From IMG/VR virus record IMGVR_UViG_3300021165_000369, positions 1-32,349 of that record: a stretch of 32,349 nt of DNA. The stretch is one strand, 5' to 3'. Shown one piece after another: positions 9,269 through 32,349 of this stretch. The position numbers and the translations under genes were made by a program. Each line of letters opens with the position of its first letter. Position 1 is the first letter of the stretch. The stretch comes from a virus (Duplodnaviria; Caudoviricetes). Under the pieces are notes generated by a model, which was given only the letters and a program-made list of their open reading frames with translations, ran no database searches and was not told where the DNA came from.

Positions 9269-9937
9269 ATGAACATTAGAAAAGAAAAAGAGAAAGAGTT
9301 CTTTGTGAATCACATGAACACTTTTACTAAACTAGGGTTATCCGACCCGTTTTTTATTATTAAAACTGCATTTTTCCAGAAAGGTAAGTATGGAAGACAA
9401 GTGCAATTATTTGAATCTGAGATCAGTAAAGAAGAGGACATCTACATGGAGTTCTATGACAATGTTACTGATGATAAGGGTAATATTACAGATATAGTTC
9501 CTTTTAGTGAGGATAGACAGCTTTTTAAATACAAAGCTAATCCATTCTATGCTGAGGAGTATGATACTAAAGAAGGTAGTAACTTTAAAGGTGAGCCTTA
9601 TACATTGTATACTGTTCCTTTGTCAGAGTTAGTAGCTGTACTAAATGATGGTACTGAAATAACCTATGCTCTGTATGAGAAGAGAAAGGATGAGCCTAAG
9701 AAAGAGGATACATTACCTAAACTGCAGAACAGTCTAGCATTGTTTCCAAACTTTGAAGAGGAGTTTCCAGCAAAACCAACTAACATGTCACTTGATGAGG
9801 TTTACAATACAGAAATTGCAGATGCACCTTTATCTGAAATAACTATCAGAGATCTTGCAGCAATCATGTTGATAAAACCAGTTAGTGCCAGACCATGGTT
9901 AAATGAACTAATCAAACAAACAAAAAGTGAGATATGA
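9269..9937 (+). CDS. Hypothetical replication-module protein
   Basis: 222-aa ORF between DnaB and the AAA_24 ATPase. Confidence 0.75.
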   Translation: MNIRKEKEKEFFVNHMNTFTKLGLSDPFFIIKTAFFQKGKYGRQVQLFESEISKEEDIYMEFYDNVTDDKGNITDIVPFSEDRQLFKYKANPFYAEEYDTKEGSNFKGEPYTLYTVPLSELVAVLNDGTEITYALYEKRKDEPKKEDTLPKLQNSLALFPNFEEEFPAKPTNMSLDEVYNTEIADAPLSEITIRDLAAIMLIKPVSARPWLNELIKQTKSEI

Positions 9938-10251
9938 GTATAGTACTTCCTACAAGTAAAGTAAAAGCTGAGAGACAGAATCCTAAGAGAATGATTATTT
10001 ATTCTAAACCAAAAACTGGTAAGACAACAGCTTATGCTGGTCTTGAGGGTAATTTGATCTTAGATTTAGAGAATGGTTCTGATTATGTTGAAGCATTAAA
10101 AGTAAAGATCAATAGTTTACAAGAATTATTGGATACTGGTAAAGCAATTAAGGCTGCCGGTAATCCATATAGAATTGTTACTATAGATACTGTAACTGCA
10201 TTAGAAGAGATGATAATGCCTTTGGCTGTTAAACTTTACCGGGCAACGCCT
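9934..10251 (+). CDS. AAA_24/Sak4-like ATPase, exon 1
   Basis: YSKPKTGKTT Walker A, LDLENG, IDTVT; exon ends at ...KLYRATP (CCT, U at 10251). Confidence 0.88.
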
Positions 10252-10314
10252 AAACCAAATGGGCCTATTAGTAGTAATATTAATAGCAAATCTCTCTAAT
10301 TGCTGGAAAACCCA

Positions 10315-10344
10315 TTGCATATTAAAATATATTTTATACCTTTG
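10315..10344 (+). promoter_or_regulatory. Bacteroidota primary-sigma promoter inside the intron, upstream of the endonuclease
   Basis: TTG (10315-17), 19-nt spacer, TACCTTTG (10337-44) = -33/-7 consensus; 18 nt before ATG 10363. Confidence 0.65.
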
Positions 10345-10362
10345 TGGGTAAATATAAATAAT

Positions 10363-11016
10363 ATGAGTGGACAATCAGCAGCAAAGGCTTATAAACCAAG
10401 GAATGTGATCAAAGCAGGTACAATATTTAATAAAGTGAAAGTAATAGATTTTGCTTATTCAGCTAAGTCTAGAGCTTATTATTTTACTGAATGTATAACT
10501 TGTGGAGCAGGATCAATTAGAAGAATGGATCATATAAAAACTAATCCTGAATATTGTAATAACTGTAAAGAAAAAATGACAGCAAAACCAAAAGTTGAAT
10601 CTGTTATTAATACAATATATTCAGGATACAGAACTAATGCAAATAGTAGAAATATATCTTTTGAACTTACTAAAAGTGTATTTACTAAAATTACTAGTCA
10701 AAATTGTTTTTATTGTGGACAAGAACCTATTGAATCTGATTTTTCTAAAGGTAGGAACAGAACTAGTACTAAATTTATGCATAATGGTGTGGATAGATTA
10801 GATAGTAAAGTTGCTTATACAATTGAAAATTGTGTTCCTTGTTGTAGTATGTGTAATCTTATGAAAAATAAATTTTCAGCTGAGAGTTTTTTAAATAAGA
10901 TTAAACAAATCTATGTTTATAAGCAATGTTCAACGACTATGCCGGAAGGCAGTACACTACAAGCTAATGGTAGTGGAAATGGGAGAAATCCAGAAATGGA
11001 TTGTGATATAGTCTGA
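10363..11016 (+). CDS. Intron-encoded HNH-type homing endonuclease (217 aa)
   Basis: CFYCG...NGVDRLDS..AYTIENCVPCCSMCNLMK beta-beta-alpha-metal motif plus N-terminal CxxC pairs; ATG 10363 has an A-rich leader. Confidence 0.88.
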   Translation: MSGQSAAKAYKPRNVIKAGTIFNKVKVIDFAYSAKSRAYYFTECITCGAGSIRRMDHIKTNPEYCNNCKEKMTAKPKVESVINTIYSGYRTNANSRNISFELTKSVFTKITSQNCFYCGQEPIESDFSKGRNRTSTKFMHNGVDRLDSKVAYTIENCVPCCSMCNLMKNKFSAESFLNKIKQIYVYKQCSTTMPEGSTLQANGSGNGRNPEMDCDIV

Positions 11017-11087
11017 TCTATATGGTAACATATAGCAGTTCATTGGAGAACGCAGTAAACTGTTGCGGGTTTATTGGAACATTAATG

Positions 11088-11492
11088 ATGGGTAAGAACT
11101 ATGATGGAGACACTGTAGTTACATTACCAAATGGTGCAGGATATTTATATATCCGTCAAGCATTCTTTCAAGTATTAGATTTTATTGATACCTTAGCTCC
11201 CCATATTATTTTATCAGGTCACATTAAGGACAAGGTAGTTGATGATAAGGGTGAGATGGTTATGTCTGCTAACATAGATTTAACTGGTAAAATCAAATCT
11301 CTAATATGTGCTAATGCTGATGCTATTGGCTACATGTTTAGAAAAGGTAATAAGACTATTTTAAGTTTTAAAACTAATGAAGAAACAACATGTGGTGCTA
11401 GACCAGAACATCTCCGTAATGAAGAGATAGTAGTGACAGAGATGCAAGAGAATGGTGAACTAGAGTTTCACTGGGACAAGATTTATGTATAA
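11088..11492 (+). CDS. AAA_24/Sak4-like ATPase, exon 2
   Basis: MGKNYDGD...GAGY...IILSGH...ADAIGY...CGARPEHL; joined to exon 1 it gives a 240-aa ATPase. Confidence 0.88.
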   Translation: MGKNYDGDTVVTLPNGAGYLYIRQAFFQVLDFIDTLAPHIILSGHIKDKVVDDKGEMVMSANIDLTGKIKSLICANADAIGYMFRKGNKTILSFKTNEETTCGARPEHLRNEEIVVTEMQENGELEFHWDKIYV

Positions 11493-11664: not shown

Positions 11665-12351
11665 ATGGGATTAAGTACAACAGACTTAGGAACAGGTGGC
11701 GGAAGTGGACTACCTAAAACAATTTCTCCAGGGAATCATGTGTTAAAGATTAACTATCTGGATCTGGAAGATTTTAAATTTATTGATGGTGCAAAACATT
11801 TGATGTTGCATGTAGAAACAGAACCTATTGAGGGTTTTGAAGGTTTCATGTTGGACAAAGATGATGCAAGCAAGGGTCATTATGCAGGTCAAATTGGTAG
11901 AGTAAAAGCTAGTCAATATGCATTTGCTGATGGTGAAACTAAATCTGGTATTAAGATTCAAAGAGATAGATCTATCTTAATCTTCTTACAGAACTTATGT
12001 AAGACTTTTGAGATCTATGACTGGTTTGTAGAACAAGATGGTAAACATAATACTGTTGATGATTTTATTGATGCATTCAATAAAACTGCACCTATCAAGG
12101 ATAAGTTTCTTGAGTACTGTATTGCAGGTAAAGAATATGAAGGTAAAACAGGTTATACCAACTATGATATGTGGTTGCCAAAAGCAGAAAATAAGAAATA
12201 TGCTTATGGAGAATTAGAAGCTGGTAAAGTCATGATATATGATGAAGCTAAGCATCTTAAGAAACTAGAAACTAAAGAAGTAAAAAGCTTTGGTGAGGAT
12301 GATGGTTTTGATACACCAAGTAAAAGCTCTTCTGACTTCAACCTAGACTAA
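11665..12351 (+). CDS. Putative single-stranded DNA-binding protein
   Basis: PG.H.L.I N-terminal strand, G.EY..K.GY, acidic tail ...DDGFD...DFNLD; lies between a Sak4-like ATPase and primase. Confidence 0.6.
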   Translation: MGLSTTDLGTGGGSGLPKTISPGNHVLKINYLDLEDFKFIDGAKHLMLHVETEPIEGFEGFMLDKDDASKGHYAGQIGRVKASQYAFADGETKSGIKIQRDRSILIFLQNLCKTFEIYDWFVEQDGKHNTVDDFIDAFNKTAPIKDKFLEYCIAGKEYEGKTGYTNYDMWLPKAENKKYAYGELEAGKVMIYDEAKHLKKLETKEVKSFGEDDGFDTPSKSSSDFNLD

Positions 12352-14745: not shown

Positions 14746-15134
14746 TGATTTTTAACAAAGAAGAAACAAAGAACTTGCTGGGCATGCTTAAGTCTGAGGA
14801 CCAAGAGAATCATGTTATAGCATTTGAGGCATTAAAGAATGTAGATTTAAAAGAATACACTGGAGAACTATTAGTACTACTTAAGTATGGTTCTGCTAGT
14901 ATGAGTGAATGGAAGGACTTATGTCCTAAAGTATATAAGAAGTTTGGGGCTCTTGGTATGGATGATAAGAAACTTACCGGTCCTAAAACTCTTAGTCTAA
15001 TGACAGCTAACAAAGCTAGTAAAGAATCTGTAGAATTATTTATGGAATCTTTTGTAGTTGATATGGTTAGTTTTCTAGATCAGGTGGGGTATCCTACTGA
15101 TAAATTTGAGATAAATATTAAAATAAAAGACTAA
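14745..15134 (+). CDS. Hypothetical protein beginning with the ML.S.D.EN helical module
   Basis: FNKEETKNLLGMLKSEDQENHVIAFEAL; TGATG/TAATG coupling on both sides. Confidence 0.75.
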   Translation: MIFNKEETKNLLGMLKSEDQENHVIAFEALKNVDLKEYTGELLVLLKYGSASMSEWKDLCPKVYKKFGALGMDDKKLTGPKTLSLMTANKASKESVELFMESFVVDMVSFLDQVGYPTDKFEINIKIKD

Positions 15135-16438
15135 TGGATAAAGTACAAAGTCTAAGTAAAGCTGCTAAAGACTTAATGTTGAAAGAGCCCTATTATGGGT
15201 TTTTTCTCATTATGTTAAATAAAGTCTGGGACAAGAGAAGAGTTCCAACTGCAGGTGTTAGTAAGAATGGTATTAATTATCAGCTTACTATCAATGATGA
15301 TTTCTGGGAAAGTCTTACTGAAAACCATAGATTAGGTTTGCTTAAGCATGAGCTATTGCATATTGCATTTGGACATCTTACTACTTTCTTTAAGTTTAGT
15401 GATAAGAGACTAGCTAATGTAGCTATGGACATGGAGATCAATCAGTATATTGATAAAAACTGGCTTCCGGGTGGTGAATATACCAAAGAAGAAATAGATG
15501 CTATCAGAGATGAAGTTAAAATTGAGATAGCTGCTGCAAGAGAAAGAGATGCTCCTATAGAAGAAATAAGAGAACTAGCAAACAAGGTTCCAGCTAGAGG
15601 TATTATGATTGAGGATTATCCTGATATGAATCTTGATAGGAAAGCTGGTTGTAGATATTACTATGATAAACTGAAAGAAGCAAAGGATAAGAAAGATCAG
15701 AATGGTACTTGTGGTGACAGTAATATGGATAGTCTTCTAGATGACATAGAGAATGGTGATACACCTGATCATAGTACGTGGGAAGACTTTGAGAATCTTA
15801 CAGAGGCTGAAAAGAAACTAATTGAGAAACAGTTACAGAAAGTCCTAAATGATGCTAAGGAACAAACTGAGAAGAAAAGAGGTACTGTTCCAGGTGAGAT
15901 AGAAGGAGTTATTGTTATAGAAGAGATAGTTGCTGCTAAGTTTGACTGGAGAGGTTATCTCAGAAGATTTACTGGTATAAGTACTCATGTATTCACTAAG
16001 AAAATTAGGAGAAAAGAAAACAGAAGATTTGATGCTAATCCTGGTCTTAAGATTAAGATGAAACAACACATGTTGTTGGGTATTGATACTTCTGGTTCTG
16101 TTAGTGATTCAGAGCTTATGGAGTTCATGAATGAGATACACCATATCTACAAAGCTGGCGTAGAGATAACTATTATCCAATGTGATACAACTATAAAATC
16201 TATAGAGTCTTACAAAGGTAAGAATGAGATAGAAGTTAAAGGTAGGGGAGGAACTCAGTTTGACCCTGTCCTAGAGTATTACAATGTAAATACTAAGAAA
16301 TATACAAGTTTAGTGTATTTTACAGATGGTGAATGTGATACAGATGTTAAACCTAGAGGAAATGTCCTATGGGTTTTATCAGAGAGATCTAGTATGAATA
16401 CAGATTTACCAGGAAAAGTTATTAAATTAGAATTATAA
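15134..16438 (+). CDS. Zincin metallopeptidase + vWA domain protein (DUF2201-like)
   Basis: HELLH zincin motif, N.AMD.EIN, MIDAS DTSGS, GRGGT, FTDG. Confidence 0.88.
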   Translation: MDKVQSLSKAAKDLMLKEPYYGFFLIMLNKVWDKRRVPTAGVSKNGINYQLTINDDFWESLTENHRLGLLKHELLHIAFGHLTTFFKFSDKRLANVAMDMEINQYIDKNWLPGGEYTKEEIDAIRDEVKIEIAAARERDAPIEEIRELANKVPARGIMIEDYPDMNLDRKAGCRYYYDKLKEAKDKKDQNGTCGDSNMDSLLDDIENGDTPDHSTWEDFENLTEAEKKLIEKQLQKVLNDAKEQTEKKRGTVPGEIEGVIVIEEIVAAKFDWRGYLRRFTGISTHVFTKKIRRKENRRFDANPGLKIKMKQHMLLGIDTSGSVSDSELMEFMNEIHHIYKAGVEITIIQCDTTIKSIESYKGKNEIEVKGRGGTQFDPVLEYYNVNTKKYTSLVYFTDGECDTDVKPRGNVLWVLSERSSMNTDLPGKVIKLEL

Positions 16439-16449
16439 AACAAAAAAAG

Positions 16450-17619
16450 ATGAGTCAAGTTCAGTTAAATGTAGAAGAGTTAAAGAATTTTATTAAGCAC
16501 ATGGTTAATAATAACCAGATAATCCAGAAGGACGGTAAAGTTCCTGTAGCTATTAATATAGAAGGTGATGCTGGTTTGGGTAAAACTTCTGCTATCATGC
16601 AGTTGGGTAAAGAGATGAATATGCAAGTTGTAAAGCTTAATTTATCTCAGTTAGAAGAATTAGGTGACTTAGTAGGTTTTCCTGTAAAAGAATTTGAAAT
16701 ACAAAATGCTGAGGGTAAGACTACATGGATTAATGAGTCTCAGATATCTGCAGCTAGTGCAAAAGGATACAAAGTTATTGGTAAGAGAATGTCACATGCT
16801 GCTCCTGAATGGATTCAGGGTAAAGGTGAAGGTGGTTTCTTAGTCTTGGATGATTATACCAGAGCTGACCATAGATTTATGCAAGCTACTATGGAAATCT
16901 TAGACAGACAAGAATATGTTTCTTGGAAGTTACCTAAGAACTGGCATGTATTGCTTACTACTAATCCAGACAATGGTGACTATAATGTTACTAGTCTAGA
17001 TGTAGCTCAGAAGACTAGATTTATTTCTGTTGAGTTAAAATATGAAGTGAGCATATGGGCTAAGTGGGCAGAGACAACTAACATAGATGGTAGATGTATT
17101 AACTTTATGTTGATGCATCCAGAATTGGTAACTCAAAGAGTTAATCCAAGATCTGTTACTACTTTCTTCAATGCTATTAGTTCTATTCCTAAGTTTGAAG
17201 ATAACTTACCTATGATACAAATGATCGGTGAGGGTTCTGTAGGTGTAGATTTCTCTAGCATGTTTACTATGTTTATCAATAATAAACTAGACAGGATTAT
17301 TACTCCGGAAGATATCTTTGAGAAAGATGAGGCTTATGTTATTGGTTCTTTAACCTCTGCTGTAGGTAAAGATGATGACTTTAGAGCTGATATTTCTAGT
17401 GTAATTGCAACTAGGGTTATAAATTATTCATTAGTTAAAGCTGAGAAAGGTAGCATTCCTGCAACTATGATTGCAAGGATAGCCAAACTTACTACTGACT
17501 GTGATGCATTTACAGATGACCTTAGATATTATATGATTAAGGAAATAGTAAATGGCAACAAGGTTAAGTTTAGTTCATTGATGATGAATCAAAACGTGGT
17601 GAAGATGGCTGTAAAATAA
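16450..17619 (+). CDS. MoxR-like AAA+ ATPase
   Basis: GDAGLGKT Walker A, GDLVGFP, LVLDDYTR Walker B variant, TTNP sensor 1, AQKTRF arginine finger, NPRS sensor 2. Confidence 0.88.
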   Translation: MSQVQLNVEELKNFIKHMVNNNQIIQKDGKVPVAINIEGDAGLGKTSAIMQLGKEMNMQVVKLNLSQLEELGDLVGFPVKEFEIQNAEGKTTWINESQISAASAKGYKVIGKRMSHAAPEWIQGKGEGGFLVLDDYTRADHRFMQATMEILDRQEYVSWKLPKNWHVLLTTNPDNGDYNVTSLDVAQKTRFISVELKYEVSIWAKWAETTNIDGRCINFMLMHPELVTQRVNPRSVTTFFNAISSIPKFEDNLPMIQMIGEGSVGVDFSSMFTMFINNKLDRIITPEDIFEKDEAYVIGSLTSAVGKDDDFRADISSVIATRVINYSLVKAEKGSIPATMIARIAKLTTDCDAFTDDLRYYMIKEIVNGNKVKFSSLMMNQNVVKMAVK

Positions 17620-17710: not shown

Positions 17711-19054
17711 ATGGATTTATATTTAGTTATAAACATTGATGTCAGTAATGATGATTTTCAGATATACATAGATACTAAGGTAGCTAGTAAAGATGAGCCA
17801 AGTTTTACATTTAAAACTGATGCATATACTCCTGCAAAAGGAGACAAATATTATTTCTTACCTGGAGTTAATATCCCAAGGATAAAACTAAAAGATGTTG
17901 CACTAAAACATGGAGTAAGAAATGTAAGAAGTATTGATGATGCTACACATGTATTTGGTAGTAATTCATCACTTTTTAAAATGACAAATAGAAGCTATGA
18001 GTACTTTGTTAAAACTGCAGACTTTCTTGAGTTTATAGAAATTATCAAAGATAATGTAGATGAGTATTACATGGAAAAAGTAACTCAAGCATTTGAATTC
18101 TATACAGGAGATGATATTATTCTTAAAAGAAATATATATACCATAGCTTCGTATAGTGTAAATGATGCTGATTTAAAAGCTGAAATTCTACATTGTAATG
18201 CTTGTACTGATTATGAGAATACTTATTGTTATTCTGCAGATTCTGATTATGTAGATCTTTTCAAAAATCTTCTTACAAAGGAACTATGGAGTGAGGATGC
18301 TTTACTGGTACATGTTAATGGCGACAATGCAGTAACTATTGATGCTGAGATGTATGATCAACTGGCTGATATGTTTAAGAGTTCAGACTCTGATAATCAT
18401 ATTCTGGCTATGGAGATTATGGCTAACTCAAACTATAAGGATAGCTTGTTATATTTAGAGATTCTCTTTAAAGAATTTGAAGGTCAAATGTATAATTCTA
18501 ATACTAGAAAGCATGTAAACTTTAAAAGTTTGCTAGGTTATCTTGGTAAAGAGAACAGCATGAATACTAATTTAAATAATGTAATGGACTCTCTTACTGG
18601 AAAGGGTGTATTAACAATTGATATGCTTAATATTTTAATGGATAGATATAAAGATGAGATTGAGAGATCTGGTGATAATAAATATTTTAAGATTAAAACT
18701 GTTACTGTTAATGAAGCCACTCTAGCTTTATTAAAGACTAACTATACTTACAATCTGCTGGAAGATTATCAACCGGTACCTGTTGATATCTCAGAAGAGG
18801 AAGTAGAAGAATTCCCTGAAATTCACGGAGACCTTGATGATTTAGTAGGTGTCCTTCCGGGGGTTGCTTTAGAGCTTCCTGTTGAGGAAGAAGACCTTGA
18901 AATCACTGATGAAGATATAGAAGATGCATTTACTAATATTGTTAGAGATGAACTCAAGTCAGAGTTAATAGCATTAGAAGAGGAAAGTCCTGAACCTGAA
19001 GAAGAACCAAATAATAATCAAAAAGATGCTACAGACAATTTTGAATGGTTCTGA
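17711..19054 (+). CDS. Protein with BRCT-like N-terminal region, M..S.D.DN module and long acidic tail
   Basis: GDKYYFLPG..IPR.KL......GV..VR....ATHVF resembles BRCT; IDAEMYDQLADMFKSSDSDNHILAMEIM; last ~90 aa very D/E-rich. Confidence 0.7.
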   Translation: MDLYLVINIDVSNDDFQIYIDTKVASKDEPSFTFKTDAYTPAKGDKYYFLPGVNIPRIKLKDVALKHGVRNVRSIDDATHVFGSNSSLFKMTNRSYEYFVKTADFLEFIEIIKDNVDEYYMEKVTQAFEFYTGDDIILKRNIYTIASYSVNDADLKAEILHCNACTDYENTYCYSADSDYVDLFKNLLTKELWSEDALLVHVNGDNAVTIDAEMYDQLADMFKSSDSDNHILAMEIMANSNYKDSLLYLEILFKEFEGQMYNSNTRKHVNFKSLLGYLGKENSMNTNLNNVMDSLTGKGVLTIDMLNILMDRYKDEIERSGDNKYFKIKTVTVNEATLALLKTNYTYNLLEDYQPVPVDISEEEVEEFPEIHGDLDDLVGVLPGVALELPVEEEDLEITDEDIEDAFTNIVRDELKSELIALEEESPEPEEEPNNNQKDATDNFEWF

Positions 19055-20030
19055 TGAACTAGAGAGATTTTATAAGGACAAGTTTTATTTTAGCTACAGT
19101 AGTATAAATAAATTATTGTTCTCACCAAGAATGTTTTACAGTCATTATGTTCTGCAGCAAAGGGAAGATAGTACAGACGCGCACCTGGTAGCAGGACGTG
19201 TTCTGCACTGTCTATTACTTGAGCCAGATAACTTTGACAAGCAGTTTTTGTTACTAAATGGTAAGTTACCAAGTGGTAACAATAAAATAATTATTGATTT
19301 AATTTTTAAATATCACTTGTCAATTGGAAATGATTCATTAACTTTGTCTGATTACTCTCCAGAGATACTCTCACACCTACTTACAATTAACTTACACCAA
19401 GCACTTAAAACAGATCAACAAAGATTGGATAAAATTCTTGTTGATGAGAATAAGCTTTACTTTGAGTTTCTAAAAGAGAGCTCAGGTAAAACAGTTGTGG
19501 ACCAAGAAACCCTAGATGGCTGTAAGTCAGGGCTTGAAGTACTAAAACTAAACTCATCTGTAAGAGCATTATTGCAACTTGACAAAACTGATGAAGATGA
19601 CCATGTTGAGGTCTACAATGAGTTGCAACTACAAGTAGATATAGCAGGTCTCCCATTTGGATTCAAAGGTTTTGTTGACAATCTAGTTATTGATCATGAC
19701 TCAAAAAACATCTTTATTAATGACTTAAAGACTCTTGGTAAGTCCATACAAGACTTTCCTGATTCTGTAGAGTATTATAGATACTGGATACAAGCAGTAA
19801 TCTATATGAATATGGTTAAAGAAAAGTATAATTTGGAAGGTTATGCATATCATATTACTTTTATAGTGATAGATAAGTATAATCAAGTTTATCCTTACCA
19901 AGTGTCTTCAGAAACACTAGTTCAATGGAGTGAAAAGTTTGAAGAAGTAGTGACCAAAGTAAAATGGCACTATGAAAACAAACAGTATGACCTACCATAT
20001 GAGCTAGCTTTAGGTAATGTAAAACTGTAG
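19026..20030 (+). CDS. PD-(D/E)XK exonuclease (RecE/ExoVIII-like)
   Basis: SYSSI, G...HC.LLEP, E...KG.VD...INDLKT, Y.Y..QA..Y. Confidence 0.85.
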   Translation: MLQTILNGSDELERFYKDKFYFSYSSINKLLFSPRMFYSHYVLQQREDSTDAHLVAGRVLHCLLLEPDNFDKQFLLLNGKLPSGNNKIIIDLIFKYHLSIGNDSLTLSDYSPEILSHLLTINLHQALKTDQQRLDKILVDENKLYFEFLKESSGKTVVDQETLDGCKSGLEVLKLNSSVRALLQLDKTDEDDHVEVYNELQLQVDIAGLPFGFKGFVDNLVIDHDSKNIFINDLKTLGKSIQDFPDSVEYYRYWIQAVIYMNMVKEKYNLEGYAYHITFIVIDKYNQVYPYQVSSETLVQWSEKFEEVVTKVKWHYENKQYDLPYELALGNVKL

Positions 20031-24679: not shown

Positions 24680-27600
24680 TTATTGTCCCCCTATTCTAGA
24701 ACCACTTTGTGCTTGGTTCTTTATACTTGTAACAGGATCACCTGATCCTCCTGTAAATCCAACTGCTTTAAATATTTTATTCCAGATTTTTAATTCATCT
24801 TTTTGATCCCACCAGTAGGGTCCAGTATCTTTTTCATATCTAGGCATATCATCAAATGTAACAAATGAAGCTACATCACCTAACATTTGAATATATAATA
24901 TTACTGTATTATACCATGATGTTGATGTTGATGTTACCATTTTAGCATAGTCATCAGCTCCTAGATTCATTCCAAATACACTTGGTAATGGTATGAATGC
25001 ACTTGTCTCAGCTTGAACACCTAACATTAAGTTTAACATGTGATTTGACATAAAACCATATGTATTAAAGTTATCCTGATTTATAGCACCAGATTTATCT
25101 TTTAGTTTTTCCCACTTGTCATCATCATCTGGATCAAAGCCAAAGATCATTGATGCTAATACTGAAAACATAATAGTTGTCAGACCTTCAGTAGCAAATC
25201 TTCTAAAGTCTGATTTCTCTTCAGGAGTTAAATATTGATAGTCTCTAAATTTAGATTTTAATACTTTAGTAATTACTTGAAATGCTGTTATGTAATATCC
25301 TTTAGTGTACTTACCTAATGCCCAGTCATATCTTTCACCACCTCTTGTCATTTCTAATGTTTTGGTATCCATACCAAATCTGTTTACAAACATAGGTGTA
25401 AACCATTTTCTCATAAAAAAGAACATACGGTAGATAAGTAATTTATTACCTTCTGGTTGGCCCATTCTATCATATACACCAAATAGTCTTCTTGAAGTAC
25501 CCTGCAGTCTATTTTTAAATGCCTTAAATTTTTCAGATTTAGCAATAACTATTTCTTGACCATCTTCCAATTGGATCTCAGATTTAATTCTGTTTTTAGC
25601 TTTTAACTCAACTACATCAATATAATACTTGGCAGCTATTTCTTCTAAAGTTTCACCTTTACTATATATATGAAAGACTGATGTATTATTCCATCCTGGA
25701 TGTACTCCTTCTTTTAATTTAAGAATACCATTTGCATCTTTTTCCCATGCATCTACATACCTAATACTTTTTATTGTGCCATTTTTTAATTTTTGATCAA
25801 CTTTTTGACCATGTAGAAATGCTCCAAATAGTTTCATAGCTACAGACATCTCACCAAACTTTCTATGCATGTATAACCATTCAGCATTTACTAAGTCTTT
25901 TAGCATAGATCTTGTTACTTCTCTACCAAACTCATCAGTTGTTTTAAAGTTAGGATCAAACATTTGTATCAACTGACCAGACTCAGAACCAGGACCTACA
26001 GCATAGATATCTTTTGTAGTCCAGTCTAGCATTGCTTTTGTTGCCCATGGTGTAGATAGTGCTATGTCTTTTAGTGTAATAAATTCAGCTCCGGCAGCTT
26101 CAATAATTTCTTGAATATAACCTGAGAACTGATTCTTTAATGCTGAAGGTATATTAACAGCAAGAGAACTTACAGTAGAAAATCCTTGTATATTACTTAA
26201 GAATTTAGCAACTCTTGGATTTGTTTCATCAATACCCTCTACATTTTTACCAGAATACTCTCTTTGTATAAGAGATCTTACTTGACCAAGTCTATTATTA
26301 CTAGCTCCCGGTTTGTTTGCTTTTTGCAAGATACCTCTTATACTAAACATACCTTTAGAAAATGCTTCTAGTTCTTTAGGTTGATTAGCTGGATCTTCAA
26401 GTGTAGATAATACACTTTCTACAAGTGGTAAACTTTCTAATAATTTACCTTGTGTCTGAATAGATAAAGCATACTTAAACATTCCTTGTAGAACATCTGC
26501 ATCTGTGATAGAGTCATCTAAGTTATAAATACCTGTTACTGGTATATAAGATACTTGATTACCGTCAAGGTCAGTATTTACAAGGTTGTTTTTAGGATCA
26601 TAATTTAAATCATTTTGTTCATAATCAGCAACTGACTTATTCCATGTTTGAGACCACCATGCTTTAATATTAGTAGATAGTTCTTTGTATCTTTCACCAT
26701 ATGCTCCTCTTTGAAATGCTTGGTAAATATCTAATTTTTTAGTTGCATATCTTGGTAAGTCTAAATAAAGTTTACCATAACCACTCATACCTTCTTGATT
26801 ACTCAAATGATATGCTTTCATAGCCTCAAGTAATTTAAACTGAGCTGAGTTAGGGTTTGAACTTATTTGAGCATATTTTTTACTCATAAACTTTCCATCT
26901 CTAGCACTGTGTCTTTCTTTAGGACCAAACTTTCTTGGCAACCAGTTACCCTTATTGTCTTTGTATTGACCAATATAATCTGTCCAAGCCTCTCCTAATG
27001 GTATAGTTCTGTATTCATTTTTAACATCATACCTTGAGTGTCTTACATTTGGTACACCCATTATAGAAATAGTTTCACCAGTTTCTGTATCAATGATTTT
27101 TGTGGTTTCAATATACTCAGAATCACTTGGTACTATAAATGAATTGGCAGAAGTTCTTTGATATATAGTAACTTTTTTCTTTAATTCTCTATCATAAACT
27201 TCTCTTTGAACATGGTTTAATTCAAACCAGTTTTTGAAATTGTCATCTTGATCTAGTAACTGTTGAAAGTCTGCTTCATTTATATAGTCATCTACTCTTT
27301 CTTCAGTAACTTCACCAATATTTTGTTTTGATAAGTTAAAGTTTAAAGTCTCTAAGTAATATTCAGTTGGTCTTCTATTTGATAAATCACTTAATTCAGA
27401 GATAAGTTGTTTTATTCTGTTTGAATCTTCTGGATTTATACCTTGGTCTTTCTGTAGTTTTAATAAATAAAGATATCTAGCTGCTTCAGGTGAACCAGTT
27501 TGTATTTGACCTTTTTTAGCTTTGTCAATTAGTAAATCTAGTTCTTGTGAATCTTCAAGTGATAAACCAGTTCTCTTATCAAACTTAGCTCTAAAGTTTA

Positions 27601-30600
27601 TTAAAGCTTGTTCAATATCTTTTATCTTTTGTAATCTGTCAACACCTAATGCATTACTATCAGGTTGACCAAATTCATCTCTGTAGCTATAAATTAAATC
27701 ACTTATCATTCTTTGTGCACCAGCTGCATCAAAGTCTGAATTAGTAAGCTCATTCATTTTACCTTGTAGTAAGGCTAGCTCTTCAAATCTTTTATTTCTT
27801 TCTTTATAGAAATCATCACTGTATTTTATTCTTAAATTTTGTTTTTCCCATTCTCTCATTTTTTTCTTAAACTCACCAGAACCTCTGGTAATACCATTAG
27901 CTTCTAGTAAACTTACAGTTTCATTATAAGATGTCTGAAGGGAGCCCTCAATAGGAACAAAGTGACTAAAGTCTTTTGTTGCTTCTCTATGTTTAATCAA
28001 TACCTCAGCAACACTTCTGTCATAGATACCTTTTTCAGCATCATCTACTTTTTCTGTACCATCTTCATAGTATAGTGAAGCTAGTTGCTGATACTCTCTC
28101 CATAAAGCTTGTGCTGATGAATAACCTTCAAGTCTTTCTAGCTCATTGTCAAATTGATTAACTGCATTGTTATACTCTGCAAGCTTTTGTTTTCTCAAAC
28201 TGTATGCTAATTCACCTATCTCAGATTCTTTAAAGATATTATCTTTTTCATAGTACTCAGGAACAAATTCCTGCCACATATAATCAGCATTAAACTGCCT
28301 TAACTCATTTGTTGCTGCAGCAATCTTATTTCTGTCTCCTGTTTTTTTAGCTTCTTCAACTTTATATTCCAACATATCTTGTTGGTATCTCCAGCCATTA
28401 CCAAATTCATTTAGAAATGTCCATATTTCTTTTTCCATTGGTTCTCCGGTCTCTTTATTAAAGAACATGATAGTATCTTTCTCAGATATCATATCCCGGA
28501 TCTGCATAGTATTCATTTTACTAAATCCAACTTTTGGTAAAAGATCAGATAAAACTTTTCTAAACTCCATAGATTTTTTCCAAACCTCATTCTCTACTTC
28601 TGTTCTTTGATCTTGGATAAATATTGCTAATGGTCCTACTATAATATCATTACTAGAGCTATAGCTTTCTAACCATCTATTAAACCAAGATACATCATGA
28701 GCATTACCAGTTAAAGCATTTCTAATTTTATCTTCATTAACTACAAAGTCTTGATATTCTTTTACAAAACCTCTAAGAATACTTTCTGGTACTCCTTTCT
28801 TAACAAGTTCTGCTATATCATCATTAGATAAGTTTTGATTAGTTACTTTGTTATATATACCTAATACTGCTTCTTCAAGTTCACTTTTAGGAAAAGCATT
28901 TTTTAATGCAATACCTAAATTAGAGTTAAGCTTTTGAGTAACAAACTCATTCATATATGATGTTATCTCAACAAAAAACTGAACATTGTTATCTTTTAAT
29001 ATATCAGCAATGTTTTTTTGAATTCTGGTAATATTGGTAACAATCTCATTTATAGTTTGATAGAAAGGATTGTTACTATCTACAAAAGATTCTTGTGTAA
29101 GCAACTTATCTATATCACTTATCATACTTAAGTAAGACCTTGCACTTTCTTTATAGAGTCTTAGTAGACCAATTATATGTCTGCTGTTTATATTCTCTTT
29201 GCTGATCTTGCTTATATCCTTAAGCATGTTTTGAGTAACAGAATTTATAGAGTCAACACTATTAACTAAAGCCGTAGCTTTATTCTTCATGTCCTGAAGT
29301 CTCATCTCTTCTGCATCAAGAACTTTATCAAATATTTCTGCTGGTGTATTATCTTGAATTCCAGAGAAATCCATATAACCTTTTAAACTTTCTCTAATTT
29401 GCTCAATAAACTCTGTAGAACCTTTTTTAAATAAAGCTTCTTGCATCATTTTATAAGTTACCTTATCACCATAGAATTTTTTAGCTTCAGATAATACTAA
29501 TCTGTTTGTGTTGTAGGTTTGTTCTACCATCTTCTGCATAGTCTCAGGATTTGAAAGTTTAACAAGCTCATCTGCCCGCTCCTTTACAAATCTACCATAC
29601 ATTACAAGATCTTCTTCAGTAACCATGTCTGTCTCAAACACAAAGTCTTTTTCTAAAAGCATCTCTGCTAGTTCATTTAGAGTTGTATTCTCATTTAACT
29701 TAGATACAGTAACTTTATTTCCAAATATACCTCTCAGCATATTTTTAATAGCAGCTAAAAGTTTATTTATAAAACCTTCAAAACCTTCAGTTTCAATTTG
29801 ACCCACAACTTTGTTTACAGCTTTTAACTGTAATCCAAAGGCTAAGCTTTCTTCCATAAATAAAGGACTATCCACTTCTAATTCAGGATAATTCTTTATT
29901 ACATATGACTTAACACCTTGTCCTTCATCTGTAGCCATCAATTGATCATACAGATTCTTAAATAGTTTAGGGTTAGTTTTACGGATACCTTGTAGTAATG
30001 GATGTGAAAATTCATGTAGTACTGTATTCACACTTACATTATCACCTACTATATAAACAGTTCCTGCAAAATAAAATGCAGGTTCTCCACGGTATTGCAC
30101 TGGTCTATTTCTTAATAGTTTTTGTGCTTGTTCTACAGATATTTTTTGAAAGTCTGTTTTTAAACCTTTTGCAAGTCTGAGAGCTAATACTTCTGCAACT
30201 TCTTTTGCTCTTGCATCTTGTAAAACCTTGATATCCATATCTACTAATGGTATGGGCTCTTTAATTTCTAAATTGTTTAATTGATCATTATTCCCACTAA
30301 CATATTCATACTGATTGGGTGCAATTTCTTTAGCTAAACCTTTTTGTACAAGACTTTTCCATAGTGGTGTGCTGTTATCATTTAATTCACCGCTTCTTAA
30401 AACTACATTATTTTTATTAAAACTTTTTGCAAGTTGGTCATATATCTCTGAAGCAATACCTTGATTTCTATACTCAGGTTCTATTTCAACTGCATCAACA
30501 ACAGCAACTCCATTATTTAATGCATAATTAACACCACCTATTCTGATACCATCTTGAAGTATATCTAAATTATAACTATTGTTACCATAGCCACTATTAA

Positions 30601-30955
30601 ATTTTAAAGTAAGTCCTGTAGTTTCTGGTATAATTACATTTTCAGACTCAAGATTTTCTACTTGTGTCTTAAGTTTTTGTAGCTGATCAAATAACAAATC
30701 ATTAGGTATAGCTCTATAGATATTAAATGTAGTGTCTCTTCTAGGTGTAGATCCTTTTAAGTCTATCCCTGTTGATGTTTCTGTACTGAATAAAAGATCA
30801 CCATTTGTTTCTAAGCCAAACTTTTTTATAGCATAATTTGTAACTGATCTGTTTAGTAGATCAAACTTATCTCTATCAATTATTCTTCTTACATCATCTG
30901 TTGCACCGTTGTTTTCAAGATACTTGATAGTATTAACTTTTACTTCACAAACCAT
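24680..30955 (-). CDS. Giant (2091 aa) polyvalent, probably virion-ejected protein: GNAT-like, zincin metallopeptidase, helical body, LysM, C-terminal TM segment
   Basis: VEIEPEYRNQGIASEIY (GNAT motif A); HEFSH...EE (zincin); KGETLEEIAAKYYIDVVELKAKN...GQEIVI (LysM); GLTTIMFSVLASMIFG hydrophobic helix; single Cys. Confidence 0.8.
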   Translation of the reverse strand: MVCEVKVNTIKYLENNGATDDVRRIIDRDKFDLLNRSVTNYAIKKFGLETNGDLLFSTETSTGIDLKGSTPRRDTTFNIYRAIPNDLLFDQLQKLKTQVENLESENVIIPETTGLTLKFNSGYGNNSYNLDILQDGIRIGGVNYALNNGVAVVDAVEIEPEYRNQGIASEIYDQLAKSFNKNNVVLRSGELNDNSTPLWKSLVQKGLAKEIAPNQYEYVSGNNDQLNNLEIKEPIPLVDMDIKVLQDARAKEVAEVLALRLAKGLKTDFQKISVEQAQKLLRNRPVQYRGEPAFYFAGTVYIVGDNVSVNTVLHEFSHPLLQGIRKTNPKLFKNLYDQLMATDEGQGVKSYVIKNYPELEVDSPLFMEESLAFGLQLKAVNKVVGQIETEGFEGFINKLLAAIKNMLRGIFGNKVTVSKLNENTTLNELAEMLLEKDFVFETDMVTEEDLVMYGRFVKERADELVKLSNPETMQKMVEQTYNTNRLVLSEAKKFYGDKVTYKMMQEALFKKGSTEFIEQIRESLKGYMDFSGIQDNTPAEIFDKVLDAEEMRLQDMKNKATALVNSVDSINSVTQNMLKDISKISKENINSRHIIGLLRLYKESARSYLSMISDIDKLLTQESFVDSNNPFYQTINEIVTNITRIQKNIADILKDNNVQFFVEITSYMNEFVTQKLNSNLGIALKNAFPKSELEEAVLGIYNKVTNQNLSNDDIAELVKKGVPESILRGFVKEYQDFVVNEDKIRNALTGNAHDVSWFNRWLESYSSSNDIIVGPLAIFIQDQRTEVENEVWKKSMEFRKVLSDLLPKVGFSKMNTMQIRDMISEKDTIMFFNKETGEPMEKEIWTFLNEFGNGWRYQQDMLEYKVEEAKKTGDRNKIAAATNELRQFNADYMWQEFVPEYYEKDNIFKESEIGELAYSLRKQKLAEYNNAVNQFDNELERLEGYSSAQALWREYQQLASLYYEDGTEKVDDAEKGIYDRSVAEVLIKHREATKDFSHFVPIEGSLQTSYNETVSLLEANGITRGSGEFKKKMREWEKQNLRIKYSDDFYKERNKRFEELALLQGKMNELTNSDFDAAGAQRMISDLIYSYRDEFGQPDSNALGVDRLQKIKDIEQALINFRAKFDKRTGLSLEDSQELDLLIDKAKKGQIQTGSPEAARYLYLLKLQKDQGINPEDSNRIKQLISELSDLSNRRPTEYYLETLNFNLSKQNIGEVTEERVDDYINEADFQQLLDQDDNFKNWFELNHVQREVYDRELKKKVTIYQRTSANSFIVPSDSEYIETTKIIDTETGETISIMGVPNVRHSRYDVKNEYRTIPLGEAWTDYIGQYKDNKGNWLPRKFGPKERHSARDGKFMSKKYAQISSNPNSAQFKLLEAMKAYHLSNQEGMSGYGKLYLDLPRYATKKLDIYQAFQRGAYGERYKELSTNIKAWWSQTWNKSVADYEQNDLNYDPKNNLVNTDLDGNQVSYIPVTGIYNLDDSITDADVLQGMFKYALSIQTQGKLLESLPLVESVLSTLEDPANQPKELEAFSKGMFSIRGILQKANKPGASNNRLGQVRSLIQREYSGKNVEGIDETNPRVAKFLSNIQGFSTVSSLAVNIPSALKNQFSGYIQEIIEAAGAEFITLKDIALSTPWATKAMLDWTTKDIYAVGPGSESGQLIQMFDPNFKTTDEFGREVTRSMLKDLVNAEWLYMHRKFGEMSVAMKLFGAFLHGQKVDQKLKNGTIKSIRYVDAWEKDANGILKLKEGVHPGWNNTSVFHIYSKGETLEEIAAKYYIDVVELKAKNRIKSEIQLEDGQEIVIAKSEKFKAFKNRLQGTSRRLFGVYDRMGQPEGNKLLIYRMFFFMRKWFTPMFVNRFGMDTKTLEMTRGGERYDWALGKYTKGYYITAFQVITKVLKSKFRDYQYLTPEEKSDFRRFATEGLTTIMFSVLASMIFGFDPDDDDKWEKLKDKSGAINQDNFNTYGFMSNHMLNLMLGVQAETSAFIPLPSVFGMNLGADDYAKMVTSTSTSWYNTVILYIQMLGDVASFVTFDDMPRYEKDTGPYWWDQKDELKIWNKIFKAVGFTGGSGDPVTSIKNQAQSGSRIGGQ

Positions 30956-30956
30956 T

Positions 30957-32349
30957 TTATCTACATTTAAACGGATCTTCCTCTAGACCAAACTGTTGAA
31001 GTATTTCTTCATCACTTATGCCTTGATTTCTTCCAATTATATTTTTCATATCAGCATACATACTAGAGCCCGGATTTAAGTAACCAAATTCTTCATATAG
31101 CCTCTTACTTAAATATACAAATAATTCTTGAGGCATACTATTAATATTACCAAAACCTGTCTCAGGAAAGGCAACTGGCACACCACCAACTATTAGTGAT
31201 TTGATAGATGCTATTCTTCTTTCCCAAAGAGTTTTTAAAGAATTATACTTTGCGGGATCTAATTTACTAAATCCATCTGTAGGATTATCTAAACCAATTA
31301 AAAAATCAATAGACATGTCAGAAACTTTTTTACCAAAGTAACTCTGATTACTAAACTTCACAGTGTAGTTTGAGTCAAGTTCTTTTTTAGAAGTACCAAA
31401 TATAAATACTGTATTTGGGTTATTCATACTCATGTTAGTATAGTAAAGCTCATTAGTAGCTTTAGAATCATTGTAAGTAAAAATGCCTTCTCTATTTGTT
31501 TCTGTTAAACCAGCTCTAGATTTAACTTCAGTATCATCAGAAGTGTCTTCACTAGTAGATGGTTGAGTAGTAAACTTCTTAAATCCTTCTATATCTTGTT
31601 TACTTCCTAATATGTGTGTTTGAGAAAATGATTTTACAACTACTTCACCTAATTCATTTGGATTATAGTCTACTGGTTCTTTTCCATTTAGCTCAGGATT
31701 ATTCCAAGCACCCACAGTTACTAAAGCACCATCATAATTTTTAATTACATCAGTTCCCCAATTTTTATTTGCCTGATTAGCATCAGTATTTAAAGGATTT
31801 TGCAAATTAACTATAACAGCATATAATTGTCCTGCTTTATCAATTGCTTGATTAGCATATCCTTGTGCATATTTAGCATCAGGAGAAAAATAAATACCTC
31901 TTCCAAAAAAACCTGTATCTAATTCTCCAATTAAAGTGTCATCAAAATTATCAAATCTATCAGCATTTCTTGAACCATGATAAAGTACATCTTTTAATTT
32001 GCTATTAGGAAATATAGTATCTAAGTATTGAGAATATTGTTGAATTGTACCTACAGCTACTAACTCAGGATTAGATTCAAATAGTTCTGACACACCTTCT
32101 TTAACACTAGTAGATGGTTGAGTAATAACTTTAGAAGCTCTTCTTGTAGTAGGGGTGGCTGCTTTCTTAATTGTAGCAGGATTATTATAATCTATTGTAG
32201 ATAGATAATCTTTGTACCTCTGTCTTGTATTCATGTCAGAGTTTTCAGTAATGAAAAGCTCATAAAAATTATCAAGAAGTGCAAATTCATTTTTCTCTAA
32301 TGCATTTATAAATTTATCTGACTCAGATTCAACAATGTTTAAAAATGCA
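30957..32349 (-). CDS. C-terminal part of another large polyvalent protein (5'-truncated): ADP-ribosyltransferase-like domain plus degenerate macro-like domain
   Basis: Frame stays open upstream of ATG 32234 to the window edge (AFLNIVESESDKF...). LYHGS, GRGIYFS...YA..YA, VNLQNPL, YDG, GEVVV match ART-PolyVal-type ARTs. Confidence 0.8.
   Translation of the reverse strand, partial: AFLNIVESESDKFINALEKNEFALLDNFYELFITENSDMNTRQRYKDYLSTIDYNNPATIKKAATPTTRRASKVITQPSTSVKEGVSELFESNPELVAVGTIQQYSQYLDTIFPNSKLKDVLYHGSRNADRFDNFDDTLIGELDTGFFGRGIYFSPDAKYAQGYANQAIDKAGQLYAVIVNLQNPLNTDANQANKNWGTDVIKNYDGALVTVGAWNNPELNGKEPVDYNPNELGEVVVKSFSQTHILGSKQDIEGFKKFTTQPSTSEDTSDDTEVKSRAGLTETNREGIFTYNDSKATNELYYTNMSMNNPNTVFIFGTSKKELDSNYTVKFSNQSYFGKKVSDMSIDFLIGLDNPTDGFSKLDPAKYNSLKTLWERRIASIKSLIVGGVPVAFPETGFGNINSMPQELFVYLSKRLYEEFGYLNPGSSMYADMKNIIGRNQGISDEEILQQFGLEEDPFKCR
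31550..31569. repeat. 20-bp direct repeat, copy 1 (encodes TQPSTS on - strand)
   Basis: cactagtagatggttgagta, identical to 32105-32124. Confidence 0.95.
32105..32124. repeat. 20-bp direct repeat, copy 2 (encodes TQPSTS on - strand)
   Basis: cactagtagatggttgagta; offset from copy 1 is 555 bp = 185 codons. Confidence 0.95.

Follow-up and report, generated by a model that had tools for sequence, protein, structure and literature searches.

A short coding joint, conserved as DNA, flanks swappable in-frame domain cassettes in giant genes of crAss-like phages

Integrons are arrays of attC cassettes, each with one site, that depend on the tyrosine recombinase IntI. Polymorphic toxins (CDI, Rhs and MafB) exchange effector domains by recombination at a conserved coding junction, a single C-terminal tip being replaced from silent orphan cassettes that come with immunity genes. 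The polyvalent proteins of phages (PMC5512222) are giant virion-associated proteins that combine ART-PolyVal with unrelated enzyme domains, and an ART domain fused to an N4-type virion RNA polymerase has been reported; the main text of that study describes no linker or DNA joint (its supplement may list such architectures) and raises cassette recombination only as a possibility for one Verrucomicrobium locus. In the PeSL system of T4-type phages (PMC2839356), a short repeated motif consisting of an intergenic promoter and a stem–loop terminator flanks units that are dispensable. Such units, which are whole genes, are lost, gained or replaced through recombination between the copies, one of which stays in place; mini-circles were shown, and the main account identifies no integrase.

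Here we characterize a segment encoding an ART-like domain that is a swappable in-frame cassette, part of a widespread domain-cassette system with a standard DNA joint. It lies near the end of the window (the whole stretch of phage DNA analysed, 32,349 nt, which is also all of the stored genome sequence). The exact, in-frame 20-bp pair coding for TQPSTS that the initial annotation had reported was recovered at 31550–31569 and 32105–32124, 555 bases apart, with no third copy in the window at up to four mismatches. This 20-mer is the longest exact direct repeat of the window (runner-up, 16 nt; absent from the 20 largest families of a general repeat finder) and exceeds chance, given that 100 codon-wise shuffles yielded no repeat longer than 18 nt. 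In the minus-strand ORF 30957–32348, each copy is in frame and reads TQPSTS. Comparison with orthologous sites revealed that the conserved joint extends beyond the 20 nt of the repeat: the upstream joint (32100–32124, minus strand) is the full consensus, TQPSTSVK, with no mismatch to the 21-nt consensus, and the downstream joint (31550–31569, minus strand), located by repeat search and consensus comparison, leaves the consensus after TQPSTS and continues into scaffold sequence. The unit of module plus one joint (31550–32104, 555 bp) is missing from run contigs of near-identical strains.

The ORF list gives ORF 30957–32348 as the 3′ end of a giant gene (463 codons, 5′-open at the window edge), and this is likely the C-terminal part of a crAss-type virion RNA polymerase. 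Both of its flanks match giant ORFs in L069, L082 and L066, in each of which the sequence GGDFDIDK precedes the same slot by approximately 830 aa. The virion RNA polymerases of crAss-like phages have DFDID as their catalytic motif; one of them, gp66 of phi14:2, was shown to be delivered with the DNA (10.1101/2020.03.07.982082), and the motif is common to gp66 and the orthologues of the window ORF. Because the motif lies beyond the window edge, we infer the identity of the polymerase tail, and its injection, through these orthologues; packaging and injection of a protein of this type are suggested by homology to gp66. As far as sequence was fetched, 43 of 58 site-bearing ORFs contain DFDxD. Polymerases of this kind span 2,300–4,700 aa with variable accessory domains (L066 had no PDB sequence match), two complete carrier genomes encode crAss capsid and tail-ring proteins, and several unrelated enzyme domains per large polypeptide, the hallmark of polyvalent proteins, were found across the window ORF and its relatives. 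A search of 50,697 phage records for cultured phages gave no match to P0001, and a 44-base joint query in phage records gave only matches with E values of at least 0.06.

The slot is framed by two scaffold regions on the minus strand. The upstream one (32125–32348) is 52% identical over 71 aa to L069. The C-terminal scaffold domain (30960–31544) is conserved in empty and filled orthologues, has no significant Pfam or NCBIfam family and bears only a weak resemblance to a DUF7831 module (22%, E = 0.035). The single cysteine of ORF 30957–32348 adjoins its C terminus, and many relatives likewise end in cysteine; the next giant ORF (24680–30955, minus strand; 2,091 aa) has its single cysteine at position 3, facing that of the polymerase-tail ORF. 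This neighbour contains a GNAT domain (aa 129–199), an HEFSH zincin-like motif and LysM, and the joint is absent from it. Run contigs diverge within it at approximately 30030–30250, which suggests other variable boundaries.

The module between the joints (31569–32102, minus strand; 178 aa) comprises an N-arm, a catalytic-type core and a C-arm, as delimited by Pfam and homologue alignment, and is predicted to be an ADP-ribosyltransferase domain. The stretch at approximately 31746–31988 matches ART-PolyVal (PF18760; E = 2.8e-12, 48 bits against a cut-off of 31.2), the nearest ESM Atlas clusters are ART-PolyVal (0.91–0.92), and the complete domain with YHGS, GIYFS and GEVVV motifs and two arms is present as originally described; the ART profile had no PDB sequence match. 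Among 57 aligned ART sequences, the His is conserved in 56, the Tyr in 38, a separate Asp in 55 and the Glu of GEVVV in 21, and the active site given for ART-PolyVal in the main text of PMC5512222 has an H-Y-D configuration. The armed domain is found elsewhere too, both free-standing and in different settings, and only 1 of 75 ART homologues of 97–312 aa contains a Q(P/S)ST(S/T) motif. Because ART mostly occurs without the joint, and slots also fill without it, the joint appears to be a lineage-level device laid over an already mobile domain rather than a property of the domain family. Free-standing versions of 180–195 aa (P0016, P0027, P0039 and P0041; one annotated as coming from a Patescibacteria genome) are a possible source pool for cassettes. 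The ART arms (window 31990–32100; also L092, L104, L169 and L215) are far more conserved than the core. Several copies carry unrelated inserts between N-arm and core, one of them a P-loop kinase, pointing to a second, nested level of exchange.

The initial annotation had proposed searching related contigs for the 20-mer, and the joint proved to be widespread. It spans 21–26 nt and encodes TQ(P/S)STSV; the 20-mer itself was matched in 44 viral stretches and an 18-nt pattern in 83, metagenomes added 101 stretches with a 23-nt pattern, and the hosts are giant genes of crAss-like phages, mostly virion RNA polymerase genes. Two exact patterns were absent from 185,579 GTDB genomes. From 80 flanked loci, we dropped 11 duplicates or overlaps and, ahead of module clustering, a further 11 (10 chance-like matches in short or unrelated ORFs and 1 duplicate). 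The retained set contains 107 sites in 59 ORFs, all on the coding strand and in one frame, and arrays reach seven joints (L101). Joint spacings are multiples of three throughout the viral set and in 67 of 68 cases in the metagenome set, the latter count covering 80 of the 101 stretches (the other 21 were examined separately). Segments after the joint form 18 multi-member classes and 27 singletons; 14 of 43 scanned segments passed a Pfam cut-off or gave a sub-cut-off ART-PolyVal match, and most others have no family. The named cargo comprises 2OG-Fe(II) oxygenase, NADAR, cpYpsA SLOG, DUF7831, AAA_33 and ART-PolyVal, and phage NADAR, SLOG, Macro and ART domains have been proposed, in PMC9503650, to act early against NAD+/ADP-ribose defences. 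A stop within about ten codons of the module start was seen around position 308 of L237 (a broken cassette or a contig error), and L168 and L169 carry a variant linker ending in QGSV(K/T) that connects ART to SLOG-like modules and may be a second type of joint. No reservoir or guide copy was found outside the cassette regions of the carriers within three mismatches (20 records), apart from one further joint-like match with three mismatches in G032, and no orphan joint-bearing cassette was found among the viral loci, 80 metagenome stretches and 20 records.

The joint is conserved as DNA and not only as peptide, as had been claimed. We scanned for the TQPSTSVK peptide with its two serine codon families fixed and all synonymous positions free, which gave 29 matches, 26 in long ORFs and 3 in short unrelated frames (some phages being counted twice). 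Of the 26 long-ORF matches, 23 are codon-for-codon identical to the consensus, when approximately 2% would be expected from local codon usage, and the three matches in short frames have different codons; synonymous positions are thus conserved far beyond codon usage, the outcome foreseen for a synonymous-site comparison. Copies outside the selection pattern agree (TCT 14/14, AGT 11/11, GTT 9/9), and third codon positions are almost invariant in 192 distinct site contexts, which are partly pattern-selected. The lone common variant, at position 7 (C in 108 and T in 82 of 192), is non-synonymous and changes Pro to Ser. This position follows neither flank (the same base in 4/15 and 14/31 close pairs, even at 100% flank identity), yet within a single module both joints have the same base there in 59 of 83 cases (odds ratio 6, p = 1.7e-4). 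Of the codons adjoining the joint, the left ones travel with the upstream sequence and the right ones with the downstream sequence; exchange therefore happens inside the joint.

Strains 95–99% identical to the locus lack a net 555 nt and keep one joint; these are empty sites of the kind that the initial annotation had proposed to look for. Among contigs of public runs, one X1 contig (302 nt, two differences, 99% alike, depth 3.8) skips exactly 555 nt, with 20 letters that fit both sides; the loose ends of two X3 contigs (the same study as X1, another sample) give the same empty junction; and an X4 contig from another study, 95–96% alike on both sides, skips 568 nt with 13 letters between, again a net 555. 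The X1/X3 empty form retains one exact 20-base copy. As in PeSL-type cassettes, the repeat lies at the breakpoints and one copy is left in the empty allele. The filled form at the window locus is supported by the assembly and by ART-filled orthologues; among the contigs listed (70 further records aside), none bridges either filled junction. A further X1 contig goes back 555 nt, with 15 other letters between and only 33 on its short side, and fits two tandem ART modules equally well; no precise circle junction was seen among the contigs.

Orthologues show the same alternation of empty and filled slots, as well as the different domains between repeats that had been anticipated. A site-blind search with scaffold sequence only, based on an alignment of three orthologues (the window C-terminal domain alone found none in viral contigs), identified 20 orthologous loci, of which 8 are empty and 12 are filled with different domains. 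The 5.2 kb leading to the slot are 98% identical between the empty L159 and the filled L158, and two further unrelated modules (L157, L161) and an ART-armed module (L167) occupy slots of the L159 type; L281, empty with one full joint, and L282, with an ART module, are 99% identical up to the joint. The proposal of a standard recombination junction gains support from these empty alleles and from the differing domains in one slot. Of the 12 filled orthologues, 8 have eroded or different junctions (the variant linker in the case of L168 and L169), and in 6 of the 8 empty loci no joint is recognizable; domains can therefore also occupy the slot without a joint. The first entry into the L159-type slot involved only approximately 10 matching bases.

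Comparisons between phages place the breakpoints in the joint. L066 and L082 are 96.7% identical to the joint end, then unrelated, then alike again, and the L066 module is 96% identical, joint to joint, to one in L101. L068 and L116 share a 503-nt module at 99.2%, joint to joint, and their polymerase cores are approximately 33% identical over only 64 alignable aa. Within the set of 192 contexts, we compared pairs sharing at least 90% identity on one side of the site. Where the upstream side was shared (26 pairs), the downstream side was unrelated in every pair; where the downstream side was shared (44 pairs), the upstream side was unrelated in 43. The pairs are not independent; contexts identical on both sides were merged beforehand, and 56 of the 192 recurred at two or more loci. 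At a control position offset by 450 nt, similarity carried on past the position in all 4 pairs. The first copies of arrays leave the consensus in the left half in 11 of 32 cases (right half, 4) and the last copies in the right half in 12 of 32 (left half, 4). Downstream junctions leave the consensus after TQP, TQPS, TQPST or later, in a tabulation that includes rows shifted by one codon and whose column totals are indicative only. The two patterns that the initial annotation had set against its own reading—a fixed domain with unconserved boundaries, and randomized codons away from indel breakpoints—were both absent.

Profile searches of the carriers gave no known integrase. Tyrosine recombinase (PF00589) was found in 0 of 28 records and 0 of 13 near-complete ones (control detected in 14 of 14); resolvase (PF00239), IS110 (PF01548) and reverse transcriptase (PF00078) were each found in 0 of 20 records, including 0 of 19 near-complete ones; and no recombinase, transposase or reverse transcriptase family was present among 135 ORFs of two complete genomes (the Pfam ORF scan left out G005). 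No attC-like hairpin was detected in an analysis of 60 of the 133 sites (mean z −0.08 sense, −0.05 antisense; the 26-mer alone is unfolded), and a sigma-70-type scan found no promoter-like or terminator-like site at either window copy. Likeness to attC (RYYYAAC and GTTRRR words) was rejected given that the words stand 11 nt apart with no fold and no tyrosine recombinase, and likeness to dif (a XerD arm, judged by eye) was rejected on spacing and on the same two absences.

Candidate annealing functions are encoded instead. The AAA_24 ATPase gene of the window (9934–11492, plus strand; Pfam and RF00028), presumably Sak4-like, is a candidate annealing enzyme, and a PD-(D/E)XK/DUF3799 nuclease gene (19026–20030, plus strand; profile match) is a candidate partner exonuclease; these two of the helper genes named in the initial annotation held up, and the proposed SSB at 11665–12351 had no Pfam or NCBIfam match. 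Both the ATPase and the nuclease may take part in swapping. AAA_24 is present in the window and in 12 of 13 near-complete carrier records; the complete carrier genome G010 gave no AAA_24, ERF, RecT or Rad52 match. Sak4 is described in PMC5499656 as an annealing recombinase working with its SSB, and PMC2327257 notes that modules are exchanged by way of conserved flanks of short length and that RecET recombines at 5–13 bp. The AAA_24 gene is interrupted from approximately 10248 to 11088, probably by a group I intron (RF00028 at 10834–11035, 35.3 bits against a gathering threshold of 50, E = 7e-7), which holds a 238-aa ORF (10300–11016), HNH-like by eye, with no Pfam or NCBIfam match. Elsewhere, the window encodes a ClpS adaptor (1215–1523) and a DUF2201 metallopeptidase/vWA gene beside an ATPase-like ORF (15134–17619).

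We consider it reasonably probable, if well short of secure, that a standard joint in the gene of a likely injected polymerase undergoes exchanges likely to proceed by short-homology recombination. Short homology is the likeliest engine, slightly more probable than not and well ahead of a dedicated integrase: no integrase family and no hairpin were found in the records and sites searched, and crossover points vary; PeSL shuffling proceeds without an identified integrase in the main account (PMC2839356), providing a precedent. Co-infecting phages would supply donor DNA as joint–module–joint, and crossovers at variable points of the joint would be the work of an annealing-type recombinase, for which the phage Sak4-like ATPase with the nuclease is the most plausible candidate and host RecA the alternative. 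Recombination between two joints would pop a module out and leave one joint as a landing site, and the reading frame would be kept by virtue of every joint sitting in one codon phase. Uniformity of the joint would follow if modules and slots matching the common sequence are those that keep exchanging. The position-7 pattern may reflect double crossovers whose positions vary and a turnover that outpaces point mutation; as this position is linked to neither flank, a single fixed cut would not be expected to produce it. For the cargo we predict an early role in infection, countering NAD+/ADP-ribose and nucleic-acid defences of the host. Counting against short homology, near-invariance over 21 nt across distant phages is more than homology needs and could mean that a protein or RNA reads the site, and we also weigh against it the lack of known annealing proteins in G010 and the first entry at approximately 10 bases.

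Those same observations—weak 10-base entry and a carrier without known annealing proteins—together with the almost invariant third positions and the agreement of position 7 within a module but with neither flank, are what a dedicated, unrecognized machine would explain. Such a machine, of phage or host and possibly RNA- or primer-guided, would read or write the joint in integron-like or templated in-frame capture. We regard it as unlikely yet a serious contender, given the empty profile searches, the mean z of approximately 0 on both strands, staggered junctions and the absence of the joint from GTDB genomes; a single fixed cut with a circle also predicts linkage of position 7 to one flank, which was not seen. 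A more far-reaching proposal, which we hold to be unlikely and offer as speculation, is that a phage machine captures free-standing enzyme genes as in-frame cassettes, amounting to an integrase-free intragenic ‘protein integron’ across crAss-like families in which neither joint would come from donor or recipient, both being set by the capture event itself.

The joint might instead be kept for a job at the protein level, as a flexible linker or a protease cut site that frees the domains, with identical codons reflecting recent copying of modules. It does lie in Thr/Gln/Pro/Ser-rich interdomain linkers, and the HEFSH motif of the neighbouring giant ORF is of a zincin-like kind; but the common variant is a Pro-to-Ser replacement that leaves the synonymous positions fixed, and the same codons flank unrelated domains, with breakpoints inside the motif. 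As the sole explanation this is improbable, being contradicted by codon identity and the breakpoint data, and an added protein-level role is possible. Target-site duplication by a transposition-like insertion, the alternative named in the initial annotation, would account for the single exact copy in the X1/X3 empty form and for the agreement of the two joints at position 7; it is disfavoured, and if anything still less probable, since the L159/L158 pair shows a match to the empty site for the downstream copy alone, the upstream one being the common consensus rather than target sequence. Neither the 135 ORFs nor the IS110 search yielded a transposase family, and the modules inspected gave no sign of terminal inverted repeats. 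Assembly chimeras formed at the short repeat deserve mention given that the evidence comes entirely from assemblies and unitigs and that no listed contig bridges the filled junctions of the window. We judge them very improbable: the window copies share only 20 nt and the L158 downstream junction approximately 10 with the consensus, both short of usual assembly k-mer sizes, architectures recur in separate records (L163/L164/L176, L173/L174 and L168/L169), modules with eroded ends occupy the same slot, and spacings stay in frame.

The system is a new form of repeat-mediated modular shuffling. It resembles integrons in its tandem arrays of interchangeable cassettes and in the RYYYAAC- and GTTRRR-like words of the joint, but it differs in the 11-nt spacing of the words, in the lack of a folded site and of a tyrosine recombinase in the carriers (a host enzyme is possible), in having no fixed crossover and in cassettes fused in frame. 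In contrast to polymorphic toxins, the joint stands on both sides of a module, modules stack internally and no orphan cassette was found. Like PeSL, a short repeated motif flanks dispensable units; unlike PeSL, the joint is coding and in frame, has no promoter, terminator or hairpin signal and moves domains within one polypeptide. Relative to the polyvalent architectures in the main text of PMC5512222, the junction here is defined to the base, empty and filled alleles are at hand, and the polymerase is of the crAss type. In the literature covered (subscription papers thinly, supplements aside), we found no description of the joint.

How polyvalent phage proteins gain and lose domains was an open question; with the junction defined to the base in near-identical strains, and with empty and filled alleles, it therefore becomes directly testable. 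The window contributes a precise empty allele from near-identical strains, together with the linkage test at position 7. Domain exchange occurs between phages whose polymerases share only approximately 30% identity, and the joint serves as a search tag that marks dozens of probable counter-defence domains, many of them without a Pfam family.
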